Source of the DNA: Deltaproteobacteria bacterium
GTDB taxonomy: Bacteria > Myxococcota > Myxococcia > SLRQ01
Assembly: GCA_029210625.1 (NCBI GenBank)
Contig: JARGFU010000001.1
Coordinates: 69,806 to 133,805 of the forward strand
Length of the DNA stretch: 64,000 bases
Direction of reading: 5' to 3'
Shown: piece by piece, positions 4,861 through 30,473 of the stretch
How positions within the stretch are numbered: the stretch's first letter is position 1
Layout: each line of letters begins with the position of its first letter
The notes under the pieces: generated by a model
Databases searched by the model: none
Seen by the model: the letters and a program-made list of their open reading frames with translations, nothing else
Told to the model about the DNA's origin: nothing
Position numbers and translations under genes: made by a program

Positions 4861-4891
4861 ACTCGGAACCGCACGCGATCGAGGACGCTTC

Positions 4892-7210
4892 GTGGCCGCC
4901 CGCAGCAAGACCCAGACCCGTTTCGGGAAGTACCGCCTGCTGCGCCGGCTCGCCCGGGGCGGGATGGCCGAGATCTTCCTGGCCCGCTACGAGGCGGCCG
5001 CCGGCATCTCGAAGGTGGTGGTGGTCAAGAAGATCCTGCCGGCCTTCGCCGACAACCCGCGCTTCCTCAAGATGTTCATCGACGAGGCCCGGGTCACGGT
5101 GGGCCTCTCGCACGGCAACATCGCCCAGGTCTTCGACTTCGGAGAGATCGACGGCAGCTACTACCTGGCGATGGAGTACGTGCAGGGGCAGGCCCTCTCC
5201 TCGGTGCTGACCCGGACGACCGAGGCCGGGCTCGCCTTCCCGATCCCCATCGCCTGCTTCGTGACCATGGAGGTCTGCAAGGGCCTCGGCTACGCCCACC
5301 GCAAGTGCGACGAGACGGGCAAGCCCCTCGGGATCGTGCACCGCGACGTCTCGCCCCAGAACGTGATGATCTCCTACGAGGGGCAGGTGAAGGTCGTGGA
5401 CTTCGGCATCGCGAAGGCCGCCAACCTCGCCGGCGACACGCGCGCGGGCGCCCTGAAGGGCAAGTACCTCTACTTCGCGCCGGAGCAGGCCCGCTCCCGG
5501 CCCATCGACGCGCGCACCGACGTCTGCGCCACGGGGATCGTCCTCTACGAGCTGCTCACCGGCCGCCGCCCCTACTCGGGGGTGCTGATGGACGTCCTCG
5601 AGTCGATCCTGAAGGGGCACTTCCCGAAGCCCCGCGCCCTCGAGCCCGAGATCCCCCCCTCCCTCGAGCGGATCGTGCTCAAGGCGATGGCGGTCTCCCC
5701 GGACGATCGCTACCAGTCCGCCGCCGAGATGCAGGAGGCCATCGGCGCCTTCCTCTTCAAGGCCGCCCCGCGCTTCACCTCCTCCTCGGTGGCTCACTTC
5801 GTGCGCTACCTCTACCAGCCGGAGATCGAGGCCACCGGCCAGGCGGTGGAGCTCCCCGAGAGCTTCCTCGAGCAGGTCCCCCTCTGGGAGCGCCGCCACC
5901 ATCGCTCCACCCCCACCTCCCCGGGCTCCGCCGGCTCCGGCGAGAGCGCCCTGCCGGGCACGGCCGAGGAGCGCGGCCGCCTCGAGAGCGGTGACACCGG
6001 CGTGGACACCGCGGGGACCGACAGCGGCTCCTTCGCCAGCGCCGACCTCATCCACCCCTCGACCGCCGAGGCCCCGCTGCCCCGCCCCCGGCGGCCCCTG
6101 CCCCGCCCCGTGATCTGGGGCGGCCTCGGCGCCCTCCTGGCCGTGATCTTCGCGGCGGCCGGCCTCACCGCGGCGTCCTCCATGAAGCGGGTGCCCGGCG
6201 TGGGGGTGCTGGCGATCGAGAGCGAGCCCCCCGGGGCCCGGATCTTCCTGGACGGAGAGGACACCGGCCAGGAGACCCCCTACGTCTTCCAGGGGCTGGC
6301 GCCCGGCCAGCAGTACGGCCTCACCCTGCGCCTCGCGGGACACCAGCCGAGGATGGCCTCGGTGACCGCCTCCACCACCGGCTCGACCACCGTCACCTAC
6401 GACCTCGCCCCCGAGCGCCAGCCGGTCGCGCCGGTGGTCACCGCCACCGACGAGGAGCTCGACGAGGCGATCCGCCAGGCCGCCGAGAAGGAGGCCCAGA
6501 CCAACATCTCGGGGCTGGCCGGCGCGCTGGGCGATCTGGCCGCCGAGATGGGCCAGACCGGCAAGAAGCTCGACCCGACGCCCCAGCGCGTGACGGTGCG
6601 CACCCTCGACGTCCGCAAGCTCGGAGGGATCTCCCGGGGCCTCGATCCCAAGCAGCGCAACACCCTCTCGATGACCGGCGCCGCCTTCCTCGCCGATCCG
6701 ATGGTCACCGCCGCGACCACCCAGGCCTACTACGTGGTCGAGCGCCTCCGCGGAGACGCCTCCCTCGACCGCGGCGTGCTCTCCTCCGCCGAGCCGATCC
6801 AGATCCCCGCCGGCGCCCACCGGGTGCACTTCCTCTTCGCCGACGACAACATCGACGACGACTCCGGCCAGCTCATCGTCCGCATCCAGCCCGACCGGGG
6901 CCGCTTCCGGGAGGTCACCCTCGATCCCCGCCGGCACAGCTTCTCACCGGCGAAGCTGGGGCTGCCCTACCTGCAGCACCTCAAGGTCACCGAGCGCTAC
7001 GAGATCTACCTCGGCGATCAGCCGCCCTGCCTCTACAGCCGGGGCCCGATGCTCAAGACCTGGAGCGGCCTCTCCACCCCCGAGCCCGCCATCGGGGTCT
7101 TCGAGGACGGCGCCCTCATGCGCGGCGGCGTCGATCTGCGCATCTTCGACCTCGCCGCCGGCCGCCGCCCGAACCGCACCCTCGTGGTCAAGGCCACCCA
7201 CTCGCGCTAG
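4892..7210 (+). CDS. Membrane Ser/Thr protein kinase with PEGA-like extracytoplasmic domain
   Basis: Motifs YRLLRRLARGGMAEIFLA, VVVKKIL, HRDVSPQNVMIS, DFGIAKA, APEQ. TM helix (VIWGGLGALLAVIFAAAGLTAA) followed by a PEGA-like segment (GVLAIESEPPGARIFLDGEDTGQETPYVFQGLAPGQQYGLTLRLAGHQP) and a ~300-aa C-terminal domain. Confidence 0.85.
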   Translation: MAARSKTQTRFGKYRLLRRLARGGMAEIFLARYEAAAGISKVVVVKKILPAFADNPRFLKMFIDEARVTVGLSHGNIAQVFDFGEIDGSYYLAMEYVQGQALSSVLTRTTEAGLAFPIPIACFVTMEVCKGLGYAHRKCDETGKPLGIVHRDVSPQNVMISYEGQVKVVDFGIAKAANLAGDTRAGALKGKYLYFAPEQARSRPIDARTDVCATGIVLYELLTGRRPYSGVLMDVLESILKGHFPKPRALEPEIPPSLERIVLKAMAVSPDDRYQSAAEMQEAIGAFLFKAAPRFTSSSVAHFVRYLYQPEIEATGQAVELPESFLEQVPLWERRHHRSTPTSPGSAGSGESALPGTAEERGRLESGDTGVDTAGTDSGSFASADLIHPSTAEAPLPRPRRPLPRPVIWGGLGALLAVIFAAAGLTAASSMKRVPGVGVLAIESEPPGARIFLDGEDTGQETPYVFQGLAPGQQYGLTLRLAGHQPRMASVTASTTGSTTVTYDLAPERQPVAPVVTATDEELDEAIRQAAEKEAQTNISGLAGALGDLAAEMGQTGKKLDPTPQRVTVRTLDVRKLGGISRGLDPKQRNTLSMTGAAFLADPMVTAATTQAYYVVERLRGDASLDRGVLSSAEPIQIPAGAHRVHFLFADDNIDDDSGQLIVRIQPDRGRFREVTLDPRRHSFSPAKLGLPYLQHLKVTERYEIYLGDQPPCLYSRGPMLKTWSGLSTPEPAIGVFEDGALMRGGVDLRIFDLAAGRRPNRTLVVKATHSR

Positions 7211-7262
7211 GAGCTACGAGCTACCAGCTACCAGCTACGAGCTGCGAGCTGCGAGCTGCGAG
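7211..7262. repeat. Heptanucleotide tandem repeat (GAGCTAC x2, CAGCTAC x2, GAGCTGC x3, partial) between convergent genes
   Basis: Read directly: gagctac gagctac cagctac cagctac gagctgc gagctgc gagctgc gag. It begins immediately after the TAG stop at 7208-7210. Confidence 0.8.
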
Positions 7263-7280: not shown

Positions 7281-7955
7281 CTACACAGCGTCGCGGAGGA
7301 AGTGCACGGCGGTGCCGCGGCTGCGGTAGTGACCGGCGACGCGGCGGACGACGAGGAAGCGGTGGAGCGCGTCGAGGACGTGGCGGCCAGTGGTGCCGAC
7401 GAGGGACTCGATCTCGGTGGGGGTCGCCGGGCCCTGGTCGAGGCGGTTGAGGACCGCGCGGGGGACCTTGCCGTAGCGGGCGACGAGGGGCTCGATGAGC
7501 TCGGAGGGAGAGTAGCGCTCGACCTCACCGTCGCGGATGTGGAAGAGGGCGGGGCCGGAGAGGTCGCGCAGCCAGATCCAGCGGATCGGCGAGGGATGAT
7601 CGAAGAGCCGCCAGGCCGAGACCAGGCCGTCGCCCACCGACTCGGCCAGCGCCGCCGCGTACCAGCGCGCCATCTCCGGAGAGGCCTTCAGGAGCGCCAT
7701 CCCGAGGCGGCGGGCGTCCATCCCCGCCCGGGGGGCGAGGACCTCGAAGCCCTCCTGCAGGGCCGCCTCGAGGTTGCGCTCGGGCAGGGCCATGCCCCGC
7801 TCGATCGCCTGGAGGGCCTGCTCGGGATCCGCCCGGGGGCCGTCGAGGCTGCGCGCGACCTCGGCCAGCGCGGTGGAGGAGCGAGCCAGGAGGGCCGTCC
7901 GGTGCTCGCGCCAGATTCTCTCGACGACCTGGATGGCATCCACCGTCTGTCTCAT
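7281..7955 (-). CDS. Hypothetical protein
   Basis: 224-aa ORF with non-low-complexity translation and coding-like GC3 bias. It is convergent with kinase 3 and divergent from the zinc-finger gene at 8012. Confidence 0.55.
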   Translation of the reverse strand: MRQTVDAIQVVERIWREHRTALLARSSTALAEVARSLDGPRADPEQALQAIERGMALPERNLEAALQEGFEVLAPRAGMDARRLGMALLKASPEMARWYAAALAESVGDGLVSAWRLFDHPSPIRWIWLRDLSGPALFHIRDGEVERYSPSELIEPLVARYGKVPRAVLNRLDQGPATPTEIESLVGTTGRHVLDALHRFLVVRRVAGHYRSRGTAVHFLRDAV

Positions 7956-8011: not shown

Positions 8012-8278
8012 GTGCTCTCGGGGCGCTGCACCAACCACCCCAAGCGGGTGGCCGTCGGGGTCTGCATCATCTGCCGGGACGTGATCTGCATCGAGTGCTC
8101 GACCCCGATCGACGGCATCCACCGCTGCCACCGCTGCATCGCGCAGATGAAGCGGGCCGCCGTCCCGAGCCACTGGGAGGGCTCCGAGGCGAGCCTGATG
8201 ACGTGGATCGTCCTGATCCTCTCCTTCGGCGGGCTGACCCTCTACTGGATGGGTCTCTCGGCCCTCCTCTGGGGCTGA
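8012..8278 (+). CDS. Small zinc-finger (B-box-like Cys/His cluster) membrane protein
   Basis: GTG start. N-terminal C-x2-H ... C-x2-C ... C-x2-C ... H-x-C-H-x-C cluster (CTNHPKRVAVGVCIICRDVICIECSTPIDGIHRCHRC) followed by one TM helix (WIVLILSFGGLTLYWMGLSALLW). Stop lies 1 nt before the start of the next gene. Confidence 0.55.
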   Translation: MLSGRCTNHPKRVAVGVCIICRDVICIECSTPIDGIHRCHRCIAQMKRAAVPSHWEGSEASLMTWIVLILSFGGLTLYWMGLSALLWG

Positions 8279-8279
8279 C

Positions 8280-10220
8280 GTGGACGGCGATCGAGCGGCC
8301 ACGCCCACCTTGCGGCCCCGGGGGATCTTCGCCCTCATCGACAGCGCCTTCACGGTGAGCGCGTCCGAGCCGGCCATCGTCTGGATCTCGATCCTGGGCA
8401 TGGCCCCGGTGGCCCTCCTCTCGCTCGTCCTCTGGTACGGAGCCACCGAGGCCGCCTTCGACGAGCGCACCGAGCTGCTGGTGGCGCTGGCCTGCGCCGC
8501 CGCCGCCCTCTGGCGCTACGTCCCGGGCGGCGCGGTCTCCCTCCTCGTGATGGAGCAGGTCAGCGGGCGCCCCCTCGCCGTGCGGGACGCCCTGCGGCAG
8601 GCCCTCGGCCGCGCCCCCTCGCTGATGGCCGCCGGCTCCCTCTCCCTCTGGGTGACCCTCCTCTCCCTGCTGGTGGCGGGCCTGCCGCTGGTGGCCTGGG
8701 CCGGGGTCTACCTGGCGCTGCCCCTGGTGCTGCGCCGCGACTGCCCGCCCTGGGGGGTGGTCGGCGCCGGCCGCAAGCTCCTGCGCGACCGGGTCACCGC
8801 CGCCGCCCTGCTCACCGCGCTCTGGTTCTCCGGGGTCTGCCTGCTGGCGGCGAACCTCTGGCTCGCCGTCTCCCTCGGCCTCTCCCTCGGCGCCTCGCTC
8901 TTCGATCTCGACACCGCGCTGCTCGGCCGCCTCCTCTCGCCGGCGAACCCGATCTTCCTCCCGGCGGTGGGCGCCATCGCCCTGACCCTGCTGGAGGGGC
9001 TGCGCCACACCAGCCTCACCCTCCTCTACCTCGACGCCCGGGTCCGCCGGGATGCCCTCGACCTCGAGGCGCAGGTCAGCGCCCTCGAGGACACGCAGGC
9101 GGGCCGGCGCCCGGGGAGCCGGCCGCGGGCCAGCCGGGTCGCCGGCCTCCTCGCCCTCGTCGGCCTCGGCGCCGCGCTCGCGGGGGGCCCGGCGAGCGCC
9201 CGGGCGCAGGGCGAGCGGAGCGCCTCCTCGGTGGCGGACCGCTTCATCGACGTGGCCAACGAGGCCATCGACCGGGGCGCCGCCGTGGACACCGAGCTGG
9301 CCGAGGAGGTCCTCGGGAGCCTGGACGCCCAGGCCGAGCAGGCCCTCGCTCCCCTGACCGAGCAGCTGCAGCGGGACCTCGACGAGGGCGCCATCGGCCG
9401 GGCCGAGGCGCGGCTGGAGCGGGCCTTCGAGGAGATGGAGTATCTCGCGGACCAGGAGCCGGTGCAGGGCGAGCCCGTCGATCGCCTCCTCACGGAGGTG
9501 CTCGCGCGGCCCGAGTTCCAGCGCGAGACCCGGGCCCGCCTCACCGGCAGGGAGCTCGAGGAGGAGCCGGAGAAGCGCGAGACCTGGCTCTCTCGCCTCC
9601 TCGAGCGCTTCTTCGACTGGCTCGAGGAGCTCTTCGAGCGCGACCCGAAGGAGCGGGACGAGCCCCTCTGGGACGGCCCCCTCCTCCCGGCGAACCTCTC
9701 CTGGCTGCTCTGGGCCGCCCTGCTGACGGTGGCCGGGGTCGGCATCGGGGTGGCCGTGGTGCGCGCCCTGGGGGCCACCGAGGAGGAGCTCGAGGAGGAG
9801 CTGGGCTCGGCCTCCGAGCGCGAGGAGGAGGAGGACGAGGTGCGCGGGCCGCAGTACGACGCCCTCTCCCGGGCCCCCGACGCCTGGCTCGCCGAGGCCG
9901 ACGCCCTGGCCGCCCGCGGCGAGCTGCGCGAGGCCCTCCGGGCCGCCTACCTCGCCCTCCTGGGCATCCTCGATCGCGCCGGCCACATCGCCTACCGCTC
10001 CGAGCAGACCAACTGGGAGCACGTCCGCGGCTTCGACGGACCCGAGGTCGCCCGCAAGCGCTTCCACGAGCTGACCTACAGCTTCGAGCGAAGCTGGTAC
10101 GGCTTCGATCCCGTCGAGCTCCACCACTACCGCACCGTCCGGGAGGGCGCCCTCGATCTCGCCTCGCTCTCCCCCCAGCGCCCGGTGGCCGGCGCGGAGC
10201 CGGTGGGGGGGGAGGCCTAG
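8280..10220 (+). CDS. Polytopic membrane protein with C-terminal DUF4129-like domain
   Basis: Multiple hydrophobic helices in the N-terminal 300 aa, an acidic coiled linker, and a C-terminal region (WLAEADALAARGELREALRAAYLALLGILDRAGHIAYRSEQTNWEH...FERSWYG) resembling DUF4129 proteins found in MoxR/DUF58 operons. Confidence 0.65.
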   Translation: MDGDRAATPTLRPRGIFALIDSAFTVSASEPAIVWISILGMAPVALLSLVLWYGATEAAFDERTELLVALACAAAALWRYVPGGAVSLLVMEQVSGRPLAVRDALRQALGRAPSLMAAGSLSLWVTLLSLLVAGLPLVAWAGVYLALPLVLRRDCPPWGVVGAGRKLLRDRVTAAALLTALWFSGVCLLAANLWLAVSLGLSLGASLFDLDTALLGRLLSPANPIFLPAVGAIALTLLEGLRHTSLTLLYLDARVRRDALDLEAQVSALEDTQAGRRPGSRPRASRVAGLLALVGLGAALAGGPASARAQGERSASSVADRFIDVANEAIDRGAAVDTELAEEVLGSLDAQAEQALAPLTEQLQRDLDEGAIGRAEARLERAFEEMEYLADQEPVQGEPVDRLLTEVLARPEFQRETRARLTGRELEEEPEKRETWLSRLLERFFDWLEELFERDPKERDEPLWDGPLLPANLSWLLWAALLTVAGVGIGVAVVRALGATEEELEEELGSASEREEEEDEVRGPQYDALSRAPDAWLAEADALAARGELREALRAAYLALLGILDRAGHIAYRSEQTNWEHVRGFDGPEVARKRFHELTYSFERSWYGFDPVELHHYRTVREGALDLASLSPQRPVAGAEPVGGEA

Positions 10221-10223
10221 GCC

Positions 10224-11741
10224 ATGGCGCGCTGGCTCACCCCCCTGCTCCTCCTGCTCGGGGTCTTCCTCGGCCTCGCGCTCCTGCTGCAGCAGTCCGC
10301 GAGGAGGGGCAGCTTCGCCGACGCCGGCAGCACCTACCGCGCCGCCGAGGACGGCGCCCGCGCCCTCTACCTCCTCTCCGAGGCCCGGGGCCTCCCGGTG
10401 GAGCGCCGCCACCTCGATCTCGGGCTGATCGAGCACGAGGGCGCGATCGTGCTGGTGGGCGTGAACGCCGGCGAGAGCTGCGAGTCGGAGGAGGAGCGCG
10501 AGGCACGCGACGAGAGCGAGGAGAGCGAGGCGCCGGCCCGGGCCGCCGAGGAGGAGGACGGGGACGAGCGGGCCGGGGAGGACGAGCCCCGGGACGTGGT
10601 GGTGGGGCCCAGCCCCGGGCTGGGGATCTTCGGCCCCCGCCTCTCCTCCGAGGAGTGCGCGGCGCTCCTCGACTGGGTGGCGGAGGGCGGCAACCTGGTG
10701 CACGTCACCCAGGAGCAGGACGCCCTCCTCTCCCGCCTCGAGCTGAGCCTGCGCGACCGCGCCACCCCCGTCGAGCCCGCGCCGGAGCCCGAGGCCGAGC
10801 CCGCCGGCTCCGTCGACGCGCCGGTGGATCAGGGCGAGGGCGAGGAGCGCCCCCCCTGGGAGGAGTGGCTGGAGGAGAGTGACGCGGAGCGCGCCCGGCG
10901 GGAGAAGCGCAAGAAGGAGGAGGAGCAGGCGATCGCCTTCCTCCCCCGCCGCCTCGAGGCCGAGGGTCCGCTCCACCGGCTCGTCCCGGGTCAGCCCTCG
11001 GTCTTCACCCGGGGGATCGAGGGCGTCGAGTCCACCGGCGAGGTGCGGATCCTGACGGATCGGGGGGACGCCGTCTCGGTGCTGGTCGAGGCCGAGGTCC
11101 CGCCGGAGGGACGGGCCCGGCCGGTCGCCGCGGTGGCCGTGCCTCACGGTAGCGGCTGGGTGCTCGCCGTCTCGGTGCCCGAGCTGGCGCTGAACCGCAC
11201 CCTGCCCCGGGCGGGGAACGCCGCCTTCTGGATGACCGCCCTCGCCGAGGTCACGCGCAATGGAAGCCTGGCCTTCGACGAGTACCACCACGGCCACGCC
11301 GCCGGCCGCACCATCCTCGGCTACGCCCTGGAGCACGGCCTGCTACCGGCCCTCCTCCAGCTGATGCTGATGACGGTGGTCGCCGTCCTCGCGGCCCGGC
11401 GCCTCGGCCGCATCGAGCTGCTGCCCGGCGAGACCCTGCGCAGCACCGCCGACCACCTCGCCACCATGGCCAACCTCTACCGCCTCGGCGGCCACCGCCG
11501 GCACGCCGCCCGCACCATCGCCCGGCGCGCCCTCGCGCAGGCCGAGCGCTACCGCAGCCTCCCCGCCGTGGAGGACGCGGCGGGCGCCCTCGAGGCCCAG
11601 CTCTCCCGGATCGAGCTCTCGAAGCCGACCGAGCGCGATCTGAGCGCGGTGGCCGCCGCCGCCGCCGCGCTCTACGAGATCATCAGAAGCAAGCAGCAAG
11701 GGACCGTCCCGCGACGCAAGAGAGGAAAGCATGCAGCCTGA
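10224..11741 (+). CDS. DUF4350-like protein (MoxR operon component)
   Basis: N-terminal signal/TM (LTPLLLLLGVFLGLALLL), acidic low-complexity insert, then a conserved C-terminal half (AFDEYHHG...). Its position between DUF4129 and MoxR is typical. The 3' end overlaps the MoxR start by 11 nt. Confidence 0.6.
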   Translation: MARWLTPLLLLLGVFLGLALLLQQSARRGSFADAGSTYRAAEDGARALYLLSEARGLPVERRHLDLGLIEHEGAIVLVGVNAGESCESEEEREARDESEESEAPARAAEEEDGDERAGEDEPRDVVVGPSPGLGIFGPRLSSEECAALLDWVAEGGNLVHVTQEQDALLSRLELSLRDRATPVEPAPEPEAEPAGSVDAPVDQGEGEERPPWEEWLEESDAERARREKRKKEEEQAIAFLPRRLEAEGPLHRLVPGQPSVFTRGIEGVESTGEVRILTDRGDAVSVLVEAEVPPEGRARPVAAVAVPHGSGWVLAVSVPELALNRTLPRAGNAAFWMTALAEVTRNGSLAFDEYHHGHAAGRTILGYALEHGLLPALLQLMLMTVVAVLAARRLGRIELLPGETLRSTADHLATMANLYRLGGHRRHAARTIARRALAQAERYRSLPAVEDAAGALEAQLSRIELSKPTERDLSAVAAAAAALYEIIRSKQQGTVPRRKRGKHAA

Positions 11742-12711
11742 AAGCCGAGCCCCCGCCGACGTGGAGGCCACCGCCCGGATCTTCGAGAAGGTGCGCACCG
11801 AGGTGCACAAGGCCGTGGTGGGGCAGGACGAGGTCCTCGAGCTCCTCCTCGTCGGCCTCATCGCCGGGGGGCACGTGCTCCTCGAGGGCGTGCCGGGGGT
11901 CGCCAAGACCCTGATGGTGCGAGCGATGGCCCGCTCCCTCTCGGCGACCTTCCGCCGGATCCAGTTCACCCCGGACCTGATGCCCTCGGACGTGCTGGGC
12001 ACCCGGGTCTTCGACCTGGAGACCCGCACCTTCGCCCTGACCCGCGGGCCGGTCTTCACCGACATCCTCCTGGCCGACGAGGTGAACCGCGCGCCGCCCA
12101 AGACCCAGTCGGCGCTCCTCGAGGCGATGCAGGAGCGCAGCGTCACCCTCGACGGCGAGCACCACGACCTGCCGCCGATCTTCACGGTCTTCGCCACCCA
12201 GAACCCCATCGAGTCCGAGGGCACCTATCCCCTGCCCGAGGCCCAGCTCGACCGCTTCCTCTTCAAGGTGCAGGTGGGCTACCCCACCGACGCCGAGGAG
12301 GATCGCATCCTCGAGCTGGCCCACCACGGGATGGCGCTGGGGGATCTCGACCGGGTGAAGATCGACTCGACGGTGACCGTCGAGGAGGTCCTCGCCGCCC
12401 GGGAGGCCCTCCACGCGGTGGAGGTCCGCGACGTGGTGCGCGACTACCTGCGGCAGCTGGTCGCCGCCACCCGCAAGGCCCCCGAGGTGCGGCTGGGCGC
12501 CGGCCCCCGGGCCGCGGTGCACCTGCTGCTCTGCACCAAGGCGGTCGCCGCCCTCGCCGGCCGCGACTTCGTCACCCCCGACGACGTGCGCCGGCTGGTG
12601 CCCCCCACCCTGGCCCACCGCCTGCTGCTCACCGCCGACGCGGAGGTCGACGGCATCCAGCCCGAGGAGGTCCTCGCCCGGATCCTCGACGAGATCGAGG
12701 TGCCGCGCTGA
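11731..12711 (+). CDS. MoxR-family AAA+ ATPase
   Basis: Walker A GVPGVAKT, Walker [11 protein letters not shown], sensor/arginine region [23 protein letters not shown]. Length of 326 aa is typical of MoxR. Confidence 0.9.
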
Positions 12712-12824
12712 AGTCCGGGGCCCAGACCCTCCCGGCGCCCGCGGCGCCGGCGGGGGAGGAGGGCGCGGCCGGGAAGGCCGTCGCTCCTCACCGCAAGACC
12801 CGGCAGCTGGTCCCCGGCCGCCGG

Positions 12825-14150
12825 GTGGTGGTGCTCCTCCTCTTGCCCCTCCTGCTGCTGCTCTTCGCGCCGGCCGAGCCGAGGGTGCTCTGGGCGGCGG
12901 GCCTCCTCGATCTGCTGATCCTGGGGCTGGCCTTCCTCGACGCCGAGCTGGCCAGCCTGACCCGGCTGGAGGTGGTGCGCGAGCTCCCGCCCCGCCTCTC
13001 GGTGGGCGTCGCCAGCGACGTCACCCTTCGCCTGAAGAACCACGGCACCCGCAGCGCCACCGTCGAGCTGCACGACCAGGCCCCGGCCGCCTTCGATCCG
13101 AGGCCCGAGCGCATCCCCCTGGTGGTGCCGCCCGCGACCCGGGTGCAGCGGGGAGAGAAGCAGGAGGAGCAGCCCGGCGAGGCGGCGGCTCTCCTGCGGG
13201 TGCAGCCCCCGGCCCGGGGCCGCTATGCCTGGGGGGCGGTCTACCTGCGGGTGCGCGGCCCCTTCGGCCTCGCCTGGGCCGAGCGGATCGAGCCCCTGGC
13301 CCGGCCGGTGAAGGTCTACCCCGACGTGCGCGCCGGCCGCCTGCTCCTGGCCGGCGGGGTGCGGGACCTGGAGCGGGTCGGCGCCCACCAGCTGCGCCGG
13401 GAGGGCGAGGGCTCCGAGCTCGAGACCCTGCGCGACTACGTCTACGGCGACCCCTTCCGGGACATCGACTGGAAGGCCACCGCCCGGCGCGAGAAGCCCG
13501 TGGTGCGGGTGCGCCAGCCCGAGCGCTCCCAGACCGTGCTCATCTGCGTCGACGCGAGCCGCCTGATGGCGGTGAAGAGCGGCAACCTCACCAAGCTCGA
13601 CTACGCGGTGAACGCCGCCCTCCTCACCGCCTTCGTCGCCCTGCGCAACGACGACCGGGTGGGGCTGATGCTCTTCGCCGACGACGTCCACACCTTCGTG
13701 CCCCCGGGGAAGGGGAAGGGGCAGTACCACCAGATCCTCGAGCGCCTCTACGCCGCCACCCCCACCCGCACCTACGTCGACTACCGCGCCTTCGCCCGCA
13801 CCCTCCTCGCCCGCCAGCCCCGCCGGGCCCTCGTGCTCACCCTCACCGAGCTCCACGACGAGGCCACCACCCGACCGCTGATGGATCAGGTGCGCCGCCT
13901 CTCGACCCGCCACCTGCCGGTGGTGGTCTCCCTGCGCGACCCCGGCCTGGAGGCCGCCGCCCGGCAGCGCCCCACCACCCCGGAGGATCGCTACCGGATG
14001 GCGGCCGCCGCCGAGCTGCTGACCGAGCGCGCCGCCCTGCAGCGGGGCCTCTCGGCGGCGGGGGCGCGGATCATCGACCGCCCCCCCGAGGACGCCGTCC
14101 TGGCCGCGGTGAACGCCTACGTCGAGGTCAAGCAGCGCCACCTCCTCTGA
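12825..14150 (+). CDS. DUF58 (vWA-like) domain protein
   Basis: Hallmark DUF58 motif [46 protein letters not shown]-terminal TM helices. Sits directly downstream of MoxR. Confidence 0.85.
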
Positions 14151-14249: not shown

Positions 14250-14606
14250 ATGAGACAGCACACGACCCTCCTGCTCGCCCTCGCGATCACCTCCCTCGCC
14301 CTGGCCTCGACCGGCTGTGACAACAAGGCCAAGAAGAGCCGGGGCGCGACCGCCAAGGAGCTGGTCGCCGCCGGCGCCGTCCTCCTCGACGTCCGCTCGC
14401 CCGGTGAGTACCAGCGAGGCCACCTGCCCAACGCGGTGAACATCCCGATCACCGAGCTCTCCCGCCGCCAGGGCGAGGTCGCCGACGGCGCCAAGGTCGT
14501 CGTCTACTGCGAGTCCGGCGTGCGCAGCCGCCAGGCCGTGAGCCTGCTGAAGAAGAAGGGCCACGAGGTCTTCGACCTTGGCTCCTGGCGAGACTGGGGG
14601 CCGTGA
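14250..14606 (+). CDS. Rhodanese-domain lipoprotein (sulfurtransferase-like)
   Basis: Lipoprotein signal LALASTGC. Rhodanese fold with active-site Cys loop VVVYCESGVRS and LLDVRSPGEYQRGHLPNAVNIP. Confidence 0.8.
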   Translation: MRQHTTLLLALAITSLALASTGCDNKAKKSRGATAKELVAAGAVLLDVRSPGEYQRGHLPNAVNIPITELSRRQGEVADGAKVVVYCESGVRSRQAVSLLKKKGHEVFDLGSWRDWGP

Positions 14607-14620
14607 TAGCTTCCCGGTGA

Positions 14621-15895
14621 ATGACCGGGGAATGGCCGATCCAGAGAGCACACCCTCGCTTCGGGGTGCGGATCCCCGTCTGGGTCTGGCGCCCCGACGA
14701 GGACCTGCCCGAGGAGGCGGAGGCGATCAACGTCAGCGCCGGCGGGATGCTCCTCGATCTGCCCCACCCCCCGCCCGCCGGGGCGAGGGTCCGGATCGGT
14801 CTCCACCTCGGGAAGCACGCCGAGGTGATCACCGCCGAGGCCGAGGTGCTGCGCCACCAGGAGCGGGACGGTGAGCTCCTGGCCGGCGTCCGCTTCGTCG
14901 AGGTGAGCGAGGAGCTGGCCGCCCTCATCGACCGGCTGGCCAGCGACGTCCACACCTTCGGCGACCTGCAGATCGAGGCCCTGGTGGGCAAGGGCGGGAT
15001 GGCCGAGGTCTACCGGGCCTCCAAGCGCAGCGGCGAGCGGATGTGGGAGAAGGTCGCCTTCAAGCGCATCCGGCCCGAGCTGCTGACCTCCGCGACGGCG
15101 GTCCGCCTCTTCCACGCCGAGGGCCTGCTCGCCAGCAAGCTGAAGCACCCGAACATCGTCGAGGTCTACGAGGTCGGGGAGCGGATGGGCCTGGCCTACA
15201 TCGTGATGGAGCTGGTCGAGGGCTGCGACCTCGAGCGCCTCCTCTTCGGCTGCCGCCTCCGGAAGATCCAGCTGCCGGTGGACCTCGCCGTCTACGTCGC
15301 TCACACGGTGGCGGTGGCCCTGCACCACGCCCACACCACCACCGATCCCGAGACGGGCCGCCCCCTGGGCATCGTCCACCGCGACGTCGGCCCCTCGAAC
15401 GTCTTCATCTCCGAGCTCGGCGAGATCAAGGTGGGCGACTTCGGGGTCGCCCACTTCGGCGACCTCGCCACCGAGATCACCGGCCCGGTGGGCAAGCCCT
15501 CCTACCAGGCCCCGGAGCAGATCGAGGGCGCCCGGCCCCACCCGGCCATGGACGTCTTCGCCACCGGCTGCGTCCTCTTCGAGCTGCTCACCGGCGAGCG
15601 GGCCTTCCCCCTCTCCGCGGACCAGGACGGGAGGCCGGCCCAGCTGGGCCCCCCCCCCTCGGCGAGGGCGCTGCGCGCCGAGGTGCCCGAGGCCCTCGAG
15701 GCGGTCCTCGTCCGGGCGCTGGCCCATGACGTGGACGGGCAGCAGGGCCTCCTCGCCCGCTTGAGCGGGCGGCCCACCCGCCACGCCAGCTGCGGCGAGC
15801 TCGCCGCCGCCCTGGAGGCCTGCTTCGATCCCGCCATCGGCAACCAGCTCGCCATCGCCGCCGTCGTCCGCGGCGTGCTCGCCAGCGCGGGCTAG
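14621..15895 (+). CDS. PilZ domain fused to Ser/Thr protein kinase
   Basis: N-terminal PilZ c-di-GMP motifs RAHPR (RxxxR) and NVSAGG (D/NxSxGG). Then kinase motifs LVGKGGMAEVYRA, VAFKRI, HRDVGPSNVFIS, DFGVAHF, APEQ. Confidence 0.8.
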   Translation: MTGEWPIQRAHPRFGVRIPVWVWRPDEDLPEEAEAINVSAGGMLLDLPHPPPAGARVRIGLHLGKHAEVITAEAEVLRHQERDGELLAGVRFVEVSEELAALIDRLASDVHTFGDLQIEALVGKGGMAEVYRASKRSGERMWEKVAFKRIRPELLTSATAVRLFHAEGLLASKLKHPNIVEVYEVGERMGLAYIVMELVEGCDLERLLFGCRLRKIQLPVDLAVYVAHTVAVALHHAHTTTDPETGRPLGIVHRDVGPSNVFISELGEIKVGDFGVAHFGDLATEITGPVGKPSYQAPEQIEGARPHPAMDVFATGCVLFELLTGERAFPLSADQDGRPAQLGPPPSARALRAEVPEALEAVLVRALAHDVDGQQGLLARLSGRPTRHASCGELAAALEACFDPAIGNQLAIAAVVRGVLASAG

Positions 15896-16047
15896 GGGCG
15901 TCGGCGCCGGGAGTTCACCTGTAATAGTTCAGGGAACGCAGCCGCCCGGCCTGACGCCAAAGCAGGTGCCGAAGCCCCCTCCCGGTGCTATTGTTTTGCC
16001 TCCGATTGATGGGGGCATCGGTTCGCTGCCCCGGATTCGAGGGGAGC

Positions 16048-16593
16048 ATGAACCAGCCGATGGCGGACACCTATCAGCAGCTCTTCCTGTCCTCCTACCG
16101 GAAGCCCGCGGGGGCGCTCTCGCTGGAGCGCTTCTCCGCCGAGCACGGCGAGGCCTTCCTGGTCTATTTCGGCGCCAGCTCCGAGCTCCGGGCACCGGCC
16201 CGGTCCTGGCAGGCGACGCGCTTCGACGACGGCCGGAAGGCCGGCGCCGAGAAGCAGAACCGCAGCGCCTCGGTGCAGATCTTCCCGGTGAGGTACACGG
16301 GCCGCAGCATCTCCGACCGCTGGGTGACCGTCGGCCGCGCCGCGCGCACCAACGACATCCCCATCGTCGACGAGTCCGTCTCGGCCAGCCACGCGGTCTT
16401 CGAGCGAGGCCGCGGGGGTGAGTTCCTCCTGCGGGACGCCAACTCCCGCACCGGCACCTTCGTGAACGACGAGCAGGTCGGCCCCGACGATCCGATGACC
16501 CTGAAGTCCGGGGACTCGATCCGCTTCGGAGCCGTGACGGTCGTCTTCCTCCAGGCCCCGGAGTTCGTCCAGCTGGTCCTGCAGCTGAGCTGA
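16048..16593 (+). CDS. FHA-domain protein
   Basis: C-terminal FHA signature WVTVGRAARTNDIPIVDESVSASHAVFER...FLLRDANSRTGTFVNDEQV. ATG at 16048 is preferred over the track GTG at 15985 (MNQPM...). Confidence 0.65.
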   Translation: MNQPMADTYQQLFLSSYRKPAGALSLERFSAEHGEAFLVYFGASSELRAPARSWQATRFDDGRKAGAEKQNRSASVQIFPVRYTGRSISDRWVTVGRAARTNDIPIVDESVSASHAVFERGRGGEFLLRDANSRTGTFVNDEQVGPDDPMTLKSGDSIRFGAVTVVFLQAPEFVQLVLQLS

Positions 16594-16618
16594 CGGCCGC
16601 CCCGACTCCCGGGGCGAC

Positions 16619-18037
16619 TCACCCCGGCAGCCGGAAGGTGAACTCCTTGTGGGCGATGGCGAGGGTGTCCCCGGATCGGAGGACGTGCCGCTTCACCTTC
16701 TCGCCGTTCACCCTGAGGCTACGCCGGCCGGCGAGGTGCTCTGCCAGAAAGCTGCCGTCGGCCTGCTTCTCGATCCGGACGTGGACCGGGGCGACGAAGA
16801 GGCCGCGGATCGGGATGTGAGTGTTGGGGCTCTTTCCGATGAGGAAGACGCTCCCCCACATCTCGTGCATCTTCCCGTCGTGGGCGACGCGCGCGATCGG
16901 CCCCCCGGAGGTCACGGCGACCGTCCGGTCGAAGCTCGCGACGGCCGCGGCGACCGGATCGGGCGGCGGTGGCGCCTCGACGGCCTCGGCCGCCCGGTCG
17001 TCCTCCACCGAGAGGGTGTACTTGCCGATCCCGATCTCCGCCCCGACCTCGAGGACGGCGCTCCTCACGAGGCGGCCGCGCAGCTTGAGGCCGTTCTCGC
17101 TGTCCTGGTCGACGATCTCCAGAGAGCCGCTCGGGCGACAGGTGATGACGGCGTGGTGGCGGGACACCGAGAGGTTGTCGAGGATCAGCTCGTTCTCCCC
17201 GCTGCGCCCCACGTGGATCTCGTCCCGGTCGACCGGGAAGCGAAAGACCACCCGGGAGCCGAGCTTCACGAGGAGGGAGAGGTTCCACTCGAGGGCGTTC
17301 GCCTCGGGTGCGATCGTGTAGGCGGTGATCGGCTTGCCGCCCTCCCGGTCCGGCGGCAGCTTGATCTCGTCGTAGAGATCGACGCTCACCGGCTCGGTGC
17401 GCCAGGGATCGTTGTAGATGTAGGCCAGGATGCTCTCGGTCACGCCACCAGCGGAGGGGAAGACCTCTCCCGGAGCGGCGTAGACCTTGGTGGGCACGCC
17501 CTGCCGGCAGAAGACCAGGCTGCGCGCGCGGCCGTGGCGGATCACCAGCACCGAGTCCTTCTTCTTCTCGAGCAGCATGGCGAGGAGCGCCTCGCCGTCC
17601 ATCATGCTCACCGGCACGATCGCCGAGGGGGCCTTCCGGAAGAGCACCGCCGAGCAGAGGAAGAGGGGGAGGTCGGTCTTGTAGAAGCTGACCTTCTGGG
17701 CCCGGGGCGCGGTGGCGAAGAACCAGCCGAGGGAGCGGGCGACGAAGCGCCCGTCCTCCTCGGCGCCAGCGCAGTAGGTCTTGCCCTGATGGAGGAAGAG
17801 GAAGGCCTGCTCGGTGCCGGTCTCGATCTCGAGGTAGCCGTCGGTGGCGATCCCCGCCTCGACCAGCTCCTGGATCCGGGACACCAGATCAGTGACCGGC
17901 TGGCACGGAATCGGTGTGGCCAGCAGGTGAGGCAGCTTCCCCCGCATGAAGTGGAATCTGGGCGTCGTCGGAGCTGCCGTCAATGGCGCGGTTTGATTGC
18001 CTGGCCTCTCCGGGGGTGCTACCGATCTGGGAGTCAT
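16619..18037 (-). CDS. Protein with two C-terminal FHA domains
   Basis: FHA 1: VHVGRSGENELILDNLSVSRHHAVITCRPSGSLEIVDQDSENGLKLRGRLV. FHA 2: VFLIGKSPNTHIPIRGLFVAPVHVRIEKQADGSFLAEHLAGRRSLRVNGEKV. N-terminal ~250 aa has unknown function. An alternative start at 17947 (MRGKLPHLL) would remove the overlap with the divergent gene at 18036. Confidence 0.7.
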   Translation of the reverse strand: MTPRSVAPPERPGNQTAPLTAAPTTPRFHFMRGKLPHLLATPIPCQPVTDLVSRIQELVEAGIATDGYLEIETGTEQAFLFLHQGKTYCAGAEEDGRFVARSLGWFFATAPRAQKVSFYKTDLPLFLCSAVLFRKAPSAIVPVSMMDGEALLAMLLEKKKDSVLVIRHGRARSLVFCRQGVPTKVYAAPGEVFPSAGGVTESILAYIYNDPWRTEPVSVDLYDEIKLPPDREGGKPITAYTIAPEANALEWNLSLLVKLGSRVVFRFPVDRDEIHVGRSGENELILDNLSVSRHHAVITCRPSGSLEIVDQDSENGLKLRGRLVRSAVLEVGAEIGIGKYTLSVEDDRAAEAVEAPPPPDPVAAAVASFDRTVAVTSGGPIARVAHDGKMHEMWGSVFLIGKSPNTHIPIRGLFVAPVHVRIEKQADGSFLAEHLAGRRSLRVNGEKVKRHVLRSGDTLAIAHKEFTFRLPG

Positions 18038-18647: not shown

Positions 18648-18651
18648 CCCC

Positions 18652-27292: not shown

Positions 27293-28588
27293 ATGCTTCG
27301 CTCTCTCGCTCTCACCTCTCTCGCCTTCCTCCTGCTCCTGGTCACCGCCTGCGGTGAGCCCGAGCCCGACGGCCCGAACACCGTGACCTTCCGGGGCAGC
27401 GTCGCCAGCCAGTTCGCCCCCACCCTCTTCCACGCCGACGCCTGGGTCGTCGTAGACGTACACGGCGGTGACCTCCTCGAGACCACCACCGACGCCAACG
27501 GCGAGTTCAGCGTCGAGGTCCCCGAAGGCTCCACCCTCACCGTCACCGCCGGCGCGGAGGGATCCGCACCGGTCACCCTGGTCGGCATCGACTCGGCCCG
27601 CCCGGGGTCACTGGACCTCTACCTCATGCCCTTCGACCAGACCCAGCTCCCGGGAGAGACCTGGTCGGTCTCGGTCACCGTCGACAACCTGCCCGCCGGC
27701 GCCACCCACGTCTTCGTCTACGGCGGAGATCAGGGCGGCTCCGCCTTTGCCCCCATCTCCGATCCCACCCAACCGGCGACCGTCAACTTCGACACCTTCG
27801 TCCTCGACGGCCTCGACGAGGTCGGCTTCACCCTCGGCGCGCTCAACGGCACGACCGCCGAGTTCTTCGACGCCGTCGCGCTGGTCGTCCGCCGCGCGGA
27901 CGCCGACAAGACCTACAGCCTGTCCATGCCGGGCGTCGCCCCCACGGTCCTGCAGATCACGACCAACCGTCCGGTGATCGACGGCAGCCCGTTCGACACC
28001 TTCAACAGCCGCTTCACCTACGTGATGGGCCAGGTCCGGGTGAACGACCCACCCGCCTTCAACACCGGGGCGGTCCTGGGCTTCACCACCACGGCCACCG
28101 ACACCGGCACCGGCTACGCCCTCGACGTCCCCTACGTCGTCACCGCCGACCATCCGGCCTTCGCCCAGGTCTACCTGAGCCGCGACCCCTCCGTTCCCGC
28201 CAACGGCATCTCACTGGTCCAGCAGGCGATCGAGCCGGGCGCCACCAGCCTCACCCTCGAGGCCCTCGACACTCCCACCGTCGACACCACCGTGACCTGG
28301 GAGCCGGGCGCCTCCCTCTCCTGGCCGGCCGTCGCCGGCGCCTCTTCCTATCTCTTCGCCGCGATCAGCGACGGAACCCTGCGCTGGCAGATCAGCACCC
28401 TGGAGCCCGAGCTGGCCTTCCCCCGCTTCCCCGAGGGCTTCGACCTCCAGCGCCTGAACCCGGGTGGCGGCTGGCGCCTCCAGGCCCGGCAGCAGGACAT
28501 CTCCTACTTCGACCACCCGGTGGAGTTCGACCCGACGATCGACACCTTCAAGGTGAGCGTGACCGCCGGCGGCCTGGTCTCGTTCTAG
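27293..28588 (+). CDS. Lipoprotein with carboxypeptidase-regulatory-like beta-sandwich segment
   Basis: ATG at 27293 with GAGGT 6 nt upstream. Signal LAFLLLLVTAC. TTDANGEFSVEVPEGSTLTVTA motif. The track ORF 26894..28588 carries a spurious Pro/Arg-rich N-terminal extension. Confidence 0.65.
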   Translation: MLRSLALTSLAFLLLLVTACGEPEPDGPNTVTFRGSVASQFAPTLFHADAWVVVDVHGGDLLETTTDANGEFSVEVPEGSTLTVTAGAEGSAPVTLVGIDSARPGSLDLYLMPFDQTQLPGETWSVSVTVDNLPAGATHVFVYGGDQGGSAFAPISDPTQPATVNFDTFVLDGLDEVGFTLGALNGTTAEFFDAVALVVRRADADKTYSLSMPGVAPTVLQITTNRPVIDGSPFDTFNSRFTYVMGQVRVNDPPAFNTGAVLGFTTTATDTGTGYALDVPYVVTADHPAFAQVYLSRDPSVPANGISLVQQAIEPGATSLTLEALDTPTVDTTVTWEPGASLSWPAVAGASSYLFAAISDGTLRWQISTLEPELAFPRFPEGFDLQRLNPGGGWRLQARQQDISYFDHPVEFDPTIDTFKVSVTAGGLVSF

Positions 28589-29595
28589 GCGGCCGCGCCG
28601 GAAGTAGCGCCCTCCTCGCCGGGCGTCACGCCGCGCCCGGCGCGCAGCAGGTAGAGCCAGAGCAGGACGAAGGCGGCGCAGGCGAAGGCCACCTTCACCC
28701 GCAGGTCGATCACCGGCTCGTGCCACTGGGAGATCGTCCCCTCGATCAGGCCGGCCACCACCAGCACCGGGGCGGTGCCCAGCACCAGGAGCACCGCCGT
28801 CTGGGCGGCCTCCCGCAGCGCCCGCCGGCGCCCGAGCCTCCCCGGGGCCAGGATCGAGCGCCCCAGGACGAAGCCCGCGCCGCCGGCGATGAAGACCGCC
28901 GAGAGCTCCAGCGAGCCGTGGGGGAAGATCCAGGCGACGAAGAACAAGCCGTGCCCCCGGGTCCAGTAGAGCCAGCCCAGCGCCCCCAGCCCGATGCCGT
29001 TGAAGAAGAGGAGCACCGCCGTGAGGATGCCGCCGGCCAGGCCCACCGCGAAGACCAGGATGGTGACCTGGATGTTATGGGTGAAGAGGAAGGCCGAGAA
29101 GGCCGCCTCCTCGTCCGCGTCGAGCTTGCGCCCGGCGTCCCGCTCCACCCGCTGGGCCGGATCGAGGTGCTGGTGCTGCTCGGGGACCAGGTAGATCCAC
29201 GCGTCGGGATCCACCGCCATCGCGATGCCGCCGAAGGCGGAGCCGGCCAGGAAGAAGGCCGTCGAGAGCGCGATGGCCCGCCACTCCTGCCGCACCAGGC
29301 GGGGGTAGCCCACCGCCAGGAAGCGGGTGATGGCCGAGAGGCGGGGCCGCGGGTTGGGGTGGATGCGGCCGTGGGCCCGGGCGACCAGGTCGTTCAGGTA
29401 GTCGACGACCTCGGCGCTCGCGCCGTGGCTGCGGGCCCAGAGCAGGTCGGCGGAGGCCTGCCGGTAGAGGCGGCCGAGATCCTTCGCCTCCGAGAGGTCG
29501 AGCTTGGCCACCCCGCGACGGTCGACCTCCGTCAGCAGCATCTCCAGGGCCTGCCAGCGTCCCCGGCCTTCCTCGAGAAATTGGGTCAGCTCCAC
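28585..29595 (-). CDS. Stage II sporulation protein M-like (DUF95) integral membrane protein
   Basis: Six hydrophobic helices (FTHNIQVTILVFAVGLAGGILTAVLLFFNGIGLGALGW ..., FVAWIFPHGSLELSAVFIAGGAGFVLG) with DUF95/SpoIIM topology. Divergent from the RDD gene. Confidence 0.7.
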   Translation of the reverse strand: MELTQFLEEGRGRWQALEMLLTEVDRRGVAKLDLSEAKDLGRLYRQASADLLWARSHGASAEVVDYLNDLVARAHGRIHPNPRPRLSAITRFLAVGYPRLVRQEWRAIALSTAFFLAGSAFGGIAMAVDPDAWIYLVPEQHQHLDPAQRVERDAGRKLDADEEAAFSAFLFTHNIQVTILVFAVGLAGGILTAVLLFFNGIGLGALGWLYWTRGHGLFFVAWIFPHGSLELSAVFIAGGAGFVLGRSILAPGRLGRRRALREAAQTAVLLVLGTAPVLVVAGLIEGTISQWHEPVIDLRVKVAFACAAFVLLWLYLLRAGRGVTPGEEGATSGAAA

Positions 29596-29660: not shown

Positions 29661-30473
29661 ATGCGCACCGACGCCCTGCATCAGGTGGAGACCAGCGAGT
29701 TCGTGATCTTCGAGTTCGAGCTGGCCGGCCTGGCCACGCGGGCGGCCGCCTGGATGATCGACGCCATGGTGATCGGCCTCCTGGTCGGCTCGATCTGGTT
29801 CGCCCTGGCCATCGCCTCGATCGTCGGCGGGGGCGTCGCCGTCGCCCTGGCCTTCGTCCTCTCCTTCCTCGTGCAGTGGGGCTACTTCACGATCCTGGAG
29901 TGGGCCTGGAAGGGGCAGACCCTGGGGAAGAAGGCCGTGGGCCTGCGGGTGCTCACCGATCGGGGCCTGCGGCCGGCCTTCTACCAGGTGCTGCTGCGCA
30001 ACCTGCTGCGGATCATCGACTCGATGCCGATGACCTATCTGGTGGGCGGCCTCTCCGCCTTCGCCTCCCGGAGCCACCAGCGCCTGGGGGATCTGGTGGC
30101 CGGCACCATCGTCGTGAAGGAGCGCAAGCGCCCCCTGCCCTCGGCGATCCTGCCCGAGCACGAGCGCTACAACTCCTTCCTGGAGGATCGGGCCGCCGCC
30201 GAGGCCGCCCGGCGCCTGGTCCCCGCGGCCCTGCGCGAGGTGATGATCTCCCTCTCCCTGCGCCGGGAGGAGATCGAGACCGACGCCCGCCTGCTCCTCT
30301 TCGACCGGGTCGCCCTGGCCCTGGTCGACGCCGGGGTGCCCCGCCCCCGGGCCCTCTCCGCCGAGCGCTTCGTGGTCGGGGCCACCGCGGCGATCCTCCA
30401 GGGGGAGAGCGGGCCGCGCGGCAAGGAGCGCCGCGCCCACAAGAGAGTCCCGCTCGGGCGGGGAGTCGGATAG
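29661..30473 (+). CDS. RDD-family membrane protein
   Basis: RDD domain with conserved R...D...D spacing (RAAAWMIDAMVIGLL ... RRLGDLVAGTIVV). Confidence 0.8.
   Translation: MRTDALHQVETSEFVIFEFELAGLATRAAAWMIDAMVIGLLVGSIWFALAIASIVGGGVAVALAFVLSFLVQWGYFTILEWAWKGQTLGKKAVGLRVLTDRGLRPAFYQVLLRNLLRIIDSMPMTYLVGGLSAFASRSHQRLGDLVAGTIVVKERKRPLPSAILPEHERYNSFLEDRAAAEAARRLVPAALREVMISLSLRREEIETDARLLLFDRVALALVDAGVPRPRALSAERFVVGATAAILQGESGPRGKERRAHKRVPLGRGVG

Follow-up and report, generated by a model that had tools for sequence, protein, structure and literature searches.

What is a small zinc-finger protein with a single transmembrane (TM) helix doing at the head of an operon for a MoxR-type ATPase system? 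The question is raised by a 64,000-nucleotide stretch of a myxobacterial genome (Deltaproteobacteria bacterium, GenBank assembly GCA_029210625.1, contig JARGFU010000001.1, positions 69,806 to 133,805 of the forward strand), hereafter called the window, in which a gene for an 88-aa protein of this kind stands directly before genes for a DUF4129 membrane protein, a DUF4350 protein, a MoxR-family AAA+ ATPase and a DUF58 protein. The system is conserved across several bacterial phyla and corresponds in Mycobacterium tuberculosis to Rv3689-Rv3695. The operon type, its domain families and the membrane-linked B-boxes of bacteria are already known. What is new here is that a gene for a B-box-like finger with a TM helix is the fixed first gene of the system in Myxococcota and in some other lineages, and that its link there is tighter with the DUF4129 and DUF4350 genes than with the MoxR gene, although the association between B-box and operon may already be contained in Burroughs et al. 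(2011).

A B-box-like finger on a small membrane protein

The 88-aa protein opens with a basic, binuclear Cys/His finger (residues 6-42) whose eight ligands are spaced as C-x2-H-x8-C-x2-C-x4-C-x2-C-x9-C-x2-C (C6, H9, C18, C21, C26, C29, C39 and C42). All eight are invariant in alignments of 9 close and 22 distant sequences, down to 35% identity, and from this pattern the finger is predicted to bind two zinc ions. In the nine-sequence alignment of small proteins the finger is followed by a variable linker and then by a hydrophobic C-terminal helix, which in the window protein covers residues 62-87 approximately, is modelled by AlphaFold2 (AF2) with a predicted local distance difference test (pLDDT) score of 83-93, and leaves only 0-3 residues beyond it. 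Such a protein would be tail-anchored, with its finger in the cytoplasm. Both the Cys/His finger and the helix had been noticed in a preliminary description of this DNA, and the ligand alignment and TM prediction bear them out.

As for the kind of finger, zf-B_box (PF00643) ranks top among zinc-finger families for every relative tested, and one relative carrying three copies (P0117) is alone in passing the Pfam gathering threshold (GA) of that family, at 39.1 bits. The likeness to the B-box1 of eukaryotic MID1/TRIM proteins lies in the ligand spacing, which reads C-x2-[CH]-x7-10-C-x2-C-x4-5-C-x2-C in the latter, and the same proteins provide the best sequence match in the PDB. The differences are that the last pair is C-x2-C after nine residues here and H-x2-8-H there, and that the present protein, apparently tail-anchored in the membrane, has neither RING nor coiled coil. 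In Foldseek, the top matches of the finger model, all of them non-significant, are binuclear treble clefs without exception (LIM, RING, FYVE-like and B-box). Since the ligand pattern fits the B-box1 spacing and the Pfam threshold is not reached, the finger is, on sequence grounds, best called B-box-like.

Seven invariant cysteines and one invariant histidine would also suit a zinc or redox switch, which would report envelope or oxidative stress when the cysteines are oxidised or the zinc is lost, and would toggle the complex. Related MoxR/DUF58 operons are tied to stress tolerance, as in the Bacteroides aerotolerance operon, and the MoxR of R. anatipestifer is said to have such a link as well. 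Nevertheless, the sequence does not separate a sensory from a structural zinc site, B-box and RING-like fingers are normally structural, and no redox enzyme appears as a conserved neighbour, so that we consider a switch of this sort improbable.

Conservation of the B-box gene beside the DUF4129 gene

A shallow, word-indexed homologue search returned 4 matches for the B-box protein and 8 for the 646-aa DUF4129 protein encoded after it. The four B-box homologues show 57-85% identity (35-85% over the homologues in which the eight ligands are invariant), and in the three that were looked up (P0002-P0004) the gene lies immediately 5′ of a large ORF (open reading frame), with a DUF4129 match in locus L001, the other two being cut off or not looked up. 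Seen from the other side, the 646-aa protein has relatives at 30-71% identity, among them ones from Archangium lipolyticum and from a Myxococcaceae genome, and an ORF of 87-90 aa precedes each of the four looked up (P0006, P0009, P0011 and P0012).

The association was then surveyed with one genome per species, scanned with an alignment of the DUF4129 protein, which gave 80 loci. Apart from two records, whose titles read Comamonas and simply Proteobacteria, all of these are from Myxococcota. When a hidden Markov model (HMM) of the small protein was run over the six-frame ORFs of these loci, a B-box ORF turned up immediately before the DUF4129 gene in each of the 73 that hold upstream DNA; in the remaining 7 of the 80 the DUF4129 match begins at a contig end. 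Of 66 scored loci, 59 have the DUF4129 gene starting -4 to +8 nt from the B-box stop, and the order B-box, DUF4129, DUF4350, MoxR, DUF58 is kept in every genome locus long enough. Because the B-box ORF is upstream in all 73 loci, the reservation made in the preliminary description, namely that the small ORF might not be conserved in that place among relatives, falls away. One record, L087 (BNCN01000003.1), is titled "Comamonas sp. KCTC 72670" and holds a typical Myxococcaceae-like operon with the B-box gene; it may be mislabelled or contaminated.

Furthermore, a full scan of 1.84 billion representative proteins with a five-sequence B-box profile matched 719 clusters at E <= 0.001 and 54 at E <= 1e-10, mostly of 85-130 aa and aligned over both the finger and the TM helix. 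These data dispose of the notion that the small ORF is a chance open frame. The window has a GC content of about 73% and contains numerous spurious long ORFs, which are common at such GC, and for this reason third-position GC (GC3) was taken as the coding test; moreover, the Pfam match of the small protein is below threshold. Yet the ORF has a GC3 of 0.978 and a second-position GC (GC2) of 0.517, and homologues with invariant ligands occupy the conserved position in more than 100 loci. Chance is refuted by this conservation, and the probability that we leave to it is practically nil.

Beyond the sequenced genomes, metagenomes were scanned with the B-box alone as seed (motif EC[SGT]T[KR][IVL]DG[IV] and a trimmed eight-sequence alignment), giving 29 loci with GC contents of 0.47-0.77. 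Fifteen of these extend 1.5 kb or more beyond the B-box gene or genes, and in all 15 profile searches placed a DUF4129-family gene next. DUF4350 is also present in 13 of them, the contigs of the other two (L095 and L113) ending before. In L098 and L105/L106 the MoxR, DUF58, SpoIIM and RDD genes follow, and in L099 the MoxR, DUF58 and SpoIIM genes, after which the contig ends. In contrast, L093, L114/L116 and L115/L117 retain the B-box, multi-TM/DUF4129 and DUF4350 genes without an adjacent MoxR or DUF58 gene, and are continued by, for example, a D12 methyltransferase or a PLD-like protein. That the B-box gene stays with DUF4129 and DUF4350 where MoxR and DUF58 are not adjacent points to the membrane proteins as its closest partners.

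The finger is also found on larger proteins. Among the longer relatives examined by Pfam, an N-terminal B-box is fused to a PrsW protease, to Yip1, to a domain like GspG of the type II secretion system (T2SS), to Toastrack or to other extracytoplasmic domains, and in the fusion sequences that were read a TM helix comes after the B-box. In L099 (49% GC) a second B-box protein, fused to a Yip1 domain, is encoded upstream, and L093 opens with a B-box/TM/GspG-like (T2SSG) protein followed by a zinc-ribbon/Yip1 protein. The GspG-like members make up a subfamily of 205-245 aa, with N-terminal B-box, TM helix and GspG-like (T2SSG) pseudopilin domain (L093 1601-2275; P0018, P0025, P0048-P0052 and P0056), in which the zinc finger stands where the prepilin leader would be. 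Their genes lie upstream of DUF4129 genes in L093, where DUF4350 is next, and in L095, which ends first; the contigs of L094, L096 and L097 stop before the DUF4129 position. On the 430-kb metagenome contig L105, three further B-box ORFs lie just 3′ of the RDD gene (17428-19412), so that at least four B-box proteins surround one system.

Could the B-box protein be a client of the MoxR/DUF58 machine, its insertion, metallation or turnover being handled by the system? CbbQ/O, NorQ/D and CoxD/E are MoxR-type systems encoded beside the complex that they mature. According to a general view, MoxR systems are often found in such a position (PMC3893208), and strict adjacency of the genes fits a client as well as a subunit. 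However, the B-box gene remains with DUF4129 and DUF4350 where MoxR and DUF58 are not adjacent, and the core system exists in other phyla without any B-box, therefore the protein is not a general client. The fusion of B-box heads to many unrelated membrane modules, in turn, suits an adaptor better. On this evidence a client role is unlikely.

The layout of an N-terminal Cys/His zinc domain followed by a single TM helix is also the general one of many anti-sigma factors, and the preliminary description had suggested a regulator of this kind; it would be an anti-sigma factor, or else a different membrane-bound regulator that controls transcription of the operon. Moreover, in the window and in its closest relatives a divergent gene for a 224-aa protein begins 56 nt upstream and could encode a regulator. 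The neighbourhoods do not sustain the idea, since no sigma factor or DNA-binding partner accompanies the B-box gene: there is no sigma-70 or extracytoplasmic function (ECF) sigma gene adjoining in the window, none in the operon neighbourhood of L006, L008 and L009, and no DNA-binding gene as a conserved neighbour. Upstream genes differ among these three loci (a kinase, a periplasmic binding protein and a major facilitator superfamily transporter), and the divergent gene is confined to closest relatives (L011 and L020 of the 80 genome loci), whereas the constant partner is the multi-TM/DUF4129 gene, even without adjacent MoxR and DUF58. The protein itself argues in the same direction: its eight ligands are in B-box1 spacing, the zinc-binding anti-sigma (ZAS) motif H-x3-C-x2-C is absent from the small-protein alignment, and with 0-3 residues past the TM helix there is no extracytoplasmic sensor. 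We therefore hold a regulator to be quite improbable. The suggestion of a substrate adaptor, made in the same description, remains a reasonable reading.

The partner proteins and the extent of the operon

The features of the operon and of its displaced members are collected in Table 1. The five ORFs were recovered where the preliminary description had placed them, with GC3 of 0.957-0.978 and GC2 of 0.42-0.52 (n=5), against a GC3 of 0.55-0.82 for overlapping ORFs in alternative frames, and the junctions, which in gene order measure +1, +3, -11 and +113 nt, likewise agree with it; the 11-nt overlap is that of the MoxR gene with the DUF4350 gene. The DUF4129, DUF4350, MoxR and DUF58 calls all pass their Pfam thresholds: DUF4129 with 28.3 bits (GA 24.8, residues 556-622), DUF4350 with 38.2 bits (GA 30.4), MoxR with 214 bits for AAA_3 and 75.3 for AAA_lid_2, and the protein encoded directly 3′ of MoxR with 128.9 bits for DUF58 and 43.5 for VWA_2. 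In NCBIfam the B-box, DUF4129, DUF4350, 224-aa, SpoIIM-like and RDD proteins had no match, and the DUF58 protein had only a weak one to BatA (17.8 bits, cut-off 380). Promoter, terminator and Rfam scans over 7.0-15.0 kb detected nothing.

Table 1. Features of the MoxR/DUF58 system in the window (positions in nucleotides of the window).
Feature	Position	Strand	Evidence
88-aa B-box-like zinc-finger protein, predicted to be tail-anchored	8012..8278	+	GC3, sub-GA zf-B_box, invariant ligands, AF2, synteny
646-aa multi-TM/DUF4129 fusion membrane protein	8280..10220	+	Pfam DUF4129, hydropathy, AF2, split homologues
505-aa DUF4350 protein	10224..11741	+	Pfam DUF4350, TM prediction, alignment
326-aa MoxR-family AAA+ ATPase	11731..12711	+	AAA_3, AAA_lid_2, Walker motifs
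Apparent 113-nt spacer, coding-like in DUF58 frame	12712..12824	+	GC3/GC2 by frame
441-aa DUF58 protein	12825..14150	+	Pfam DUF58, VWA_2, TM prediction
SpoIIM-like membrane protein	28585..29595	-	Pfam SpoIIM, phmmer vs L006
RDD-family membrane protein	29661..30473	+	Pfam RDD, phmmer vs L006

Two genes had been missed. A SpoIIM-like gene (Pfam SpoIIM 134.4 bits; phmmer against the L006 SpoIIM gene 2e-115) and an RDD gene (Pfam RDD 75.6 bits; phmmer against the L006 RDD gene 2.5e-67) stand divergently about 14 kb downstream of DUF58, separated from it by kinase, FHA, PilZ, histidine-kinase and other genes, and followed by MMPL and GNAT genes as in L006. Across Myxococcota a SpoIIM-like match comes after DUF58 in 49 of the 57 loci that show DUF58, usually within about 2 kb, and the pair of SpoIIM-like and RDD genes recurs in L006, L098, L105 and L120-L123. 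The last four are distant versions of the system, reached by a DUF4350-seeded profile search in Longimicrobiales, Dormibacter and Actinomycetota, plus L123, and all of them read DUF7847/GPDPase_memb/UPF0259 multi-TM protein, DUF4129, DUF4350, MoxR, DUF58, SpoIIM, RDD. The SpoIIM-like and RDD genes thus belong to the system, and the window operon is the myxobacterial form of the Rv3689-Rv3695-type cluster with these two genes displaced.

The second gene product, identical (100%) to that of locus tag P1V51_00375, was correctly assigned to DUF4129 in the preliminary description, which had overlooked that it is a gene fusion of a multi-TM protein with a DUF4129 protein. Its N-terminal multi-TM domain (residues 15-265 approximately, with about six TM helices) ends in Y-L-D-A-R-V-R-R-D-A-L-D-L, and the motif Y-L-D-A-R-V-R-x-D/E-x-L-D-L is invariant at this place across the aligned relatives. 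Then come a TM helix, an acidic or coiled region (about 306-472) that is predicted to be extracytoplasmic and is poorly modelled by AF2, a second TM helix (473-500), and the DUF4129 domain, predicted to be cytoplasmic and helical and modelled with confidence. TgpA-type proteins end in a DUF4129 domain too. In L093 and L099 each half has a gene of its own, for products of 309 aa (multi-TM) and 362 aa (DUF4129) in L099.

Pfam at E <= 5 gave no match in the N-terminal domain or in the 306-572 linker, and Foldseek with the AF2 model against the PDB none at E <= 0.001, the sub-significant matches being weak HEPN-like helical bundles only. With hhalign, the motif region of the N-terminal half matched the C-terminus of the L122 GPDPase_memb protein with a probability of 91%, and that of the L121 protein with 16%; the likeness is limited to the terminal Y-x-D-x-R-V-R-x-E-x-x-D-L motif, and the operon position is equivalent in L120-L123.

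The DUF4350 protein consists of an N-terminal signal anchor, an extracytoplasmic domain with acidic inserts, a C-terminal TM helix (371-395) and a cytoplasmic tail. Directly before the C-terminal helix lies an F-D-E-x-x-H-G motif (F351, D352, E353, H356 and G357) whose five named residues are invariant in 9 of 9 aligned sequences, Longimicrobiales, Dormibacter and Actinomycetota members as well as Myxococcota being among them. At the outer face of the membrane, this motif may be a site of metal binding or catalysis. In the MoxR protein, both Walker A (GVPGVAKT) and Walker B (LLADEV) are intact.

The DUF58 protein has an N-terminal TM hairpin before its DUF58/VWA domain, and its start deserves comment. 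The preliminary description gave the correct length for the 113-nt gap that precedes the gene, but the status of this gap as a real spacer is doubtful, given that its composition in the DUF58 frame is coding-like: across 12714-12824, GC3 is 35/37 and GC2 26/37 (binomial P ~0.002 at 75% GC). No stop interrupts the frame as far back as 11742, and no ATG, GTG or TTG occurs in it over this upstream distance, NTG codons being nearly excluded there because the middle base corresponds to the GC-rich third position of MoxR codons. In the homologous locus L006 start and stop overlap by 4 nt, and at this place the window has a CTG overlapping the TGA with which the MoxR gene ends (CGCTGAAG); homologues begin with M-[IL]-P-T-x-R-L, which aligns to L-V-P-G-R-R of the window. 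The aligned N-termini and the coding-like gap make it probable that the protein is cut short when its start is placed at the annotated GTG (12825). The 113-nt gap may then be a matter of start-codon choice rather than a true intergenic spacer, with an N-terminal extension initiated at a non-canonical codon.

A proposed role for the B-box protein

Taken as a whole, the locus is best explained as a myxobacterial MoxR-driven inner-membrane system in which the B-box protein is a subunit or adaptor, a reading towards which the balance of probability, in our judgement, tips slightly. The multi-TM/DUF4129, DUF4350, SpoIIM-like and RDD proteins would build a membrane scaffold, and the B-box protein would serve the multi-TM/DUF4129 protein as a dedicated subunit or adaptor on the cytoplasmic side. 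Its finger may act there as a peptide-binding or oligomerising head that helps to bring clients, or the DUF58/MoxR pair, to the scaffold. The VWA domain of the DUF58 protein would serve as the adaptor that docks MoxR onto the scaffold, and MoxR would use ATP to remodel a client in the membrane or envelope. The mechanism follows earlier proposals for related MoxR/vWA systems (PMC3495828; PMC5898192).

Several points weigh against this explanation. Every functional step of it is inferred, and the adjacency of the B-box gene would be equally well accounted for by a client. The identity of the finger itself is not firm: the window protein scores 18.3 bits for zf-B_box, below the GA of 24.1, and single-copy relatives score 17.7-23.1 bits, also below it; the best matches of a PDB profile search, to MID1 B-box1 (2jun and 2ffw), reach E = 0.04-0.06; and the AF2 model of the finger has a low pLDDT of about 63, with which Foldseek found no match at E <= 0.001. 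As regards the machine, the metal ion-dependent adhesion site (MIDAS) of the DUF58 protein is degenerate, reading D-A-S-R-L-M and not the canonical D-x-S-x-S, and homologues have D-A-G-R-M-M or similar, with only Asp and Met invariant. No recognisable peptidase is encoded in the operon, which leaves a degradative role without a catalytic candidate. Finally, no B-box ORF was found within 8 kb in the four distant versions, either by HMM at E <= 1 or by a regular expression of the ligand pattern. It follows that the core machine does not need the B-box protein, which is an accessory of some lineages.

A bolder possibility, and in our view a rather unlikely one, is that the B-box protein is a substrate receptor that hands the tails of membrane proteins to MoxR, acting as an AAA+ unfoldase at the membrane, and that it represents a bacterial forerunner of the eukaryotic pairing of RING/B-box and AAA+ proteins. 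If this were true, the Yip1, pseudopilin-like and PrsW fusions would mark a general, undescribed class of B-box-guided membrane quality control.

A small, non-enzymatic B-box component offers an experimental handle in genetically tractable myxobacteria: by deleting it and identifying what it binds, one could learn what the client is. A well-defined context is also gained for prokaryotic B-box domains, although the advance is incremental.

Genes around the operon

The surroundings of the operon are dense in Ser/Thr-kinase signalling genes (737-7210 and 14250-22207). Upstream there are two kinases, one of them with a PEGA domain, and downstream a rhodanese, a PilZ-kinase, three FHA proteins (one also with PilZ), an FHA-GAF-PAS histidine kinase and another PEGA kinase. 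In many Myxococcota loci the 202-aa FHA protein (15985-16593) has a syntenic homologue 3′ of the RDD gene, and in L008 and L009 kinases follow DUF58. The MoxR/DUF58 system may be linked to Ser/Thr phosphorylation; in bifidobacteria, the PFNA cluster is likewise reported to pair a kinase with MoxR, DUF58 and transglutaminase (PMC8430577).

The divergent 224-aa gene (7281-7955, minus strand) belongs to no known family and has a GC3 of 0.94; the C-terminus of its product looks like a winged helix, and it could be a local regulator. At this position it occurs in the closest relatives only (L001, L002, L004, L005, L007/L011 and L020), not in Myxococcaceae or Archangiaceae. Between it and the stop of the convergent gene for a PEGA-domain Ser/Thr kinase (4892-7210) lies a tandem repeat of the 7-nt unit GCTACGA (7206-7262, 8.1 copies, 92% matches).

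Comparison with known systems

Prokaryotic B-boxes are reported to be binuclear treble-clef fingers at the cytoplasmic N-terminus of membrane-anchored proteins (Burroughs, Iyer and Aravind, 2011, cited in PMC4506424 and PMC11237479) and, according to PMC4506424, which attributes this to Burroughs et al. (2011), have been linked to the folding, stability and proteolysis of membrane proteins. The present fingers resemble them in being N-terminal and membrane-anchored, and PrsW and Toastrack fusions are found here too; the fusions to membrane modules agree with the role so attributed.

For the machine as such, Zhang and Aravind (2012, PMC3495828) proposed that a MoxR, a vWA(DUF58) protein and a membrane transglutaminase-like peptidase of the YebA/TgpA type make up an ATP-dependent system for degradation close to the membrane. 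Both operons pair MoxR and DUF58 with a polytopic membrane protein. Unlike the YebA/TgpA operon, however, the present one encodes no transglutaminase or other peptidase domain that Pfam would detect in any of its proteins. For archaea, Makarova et al. (2015, PMC5898192) predicted a complex of arCOG01314 (DUF4350), MoxR and vWA proteins that would act in secretion or in membrane remodelling. The likeness is in a membrane-anchored, extracytoplasmic DUF4350 protein, a COG0714 MoxR and a vWA protein; the archaeal neighbourhoods contain S-layer or Ig-like proteins, and B-box, DUF4129, SpoIIM and RDD do not figure in the section and table that treat them.

The actinobacterial counterpart is the cluster Rv3689-Rv3695 of M. 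tuberculosis (membrane protein, DUF4350, MoxR2, DUF58, SpoIIM-like and RDD), tabulated for mycobacteria in PMC8191103 and having relatives in other phyla, with which the window operon shares both families and order. The differences concern three features: the SpoIIM-like and RDD genes are set apart in the window by 14 kb of signalling genes; the multi-TM and DUF4129 proteins, separate genes in the distant versions, are fused; and the B-box gene, lacking within 8 kb in the versions from Actinomycetota, Dormibacter, Longimicrobiales and L123, stands here at the head of the operon.

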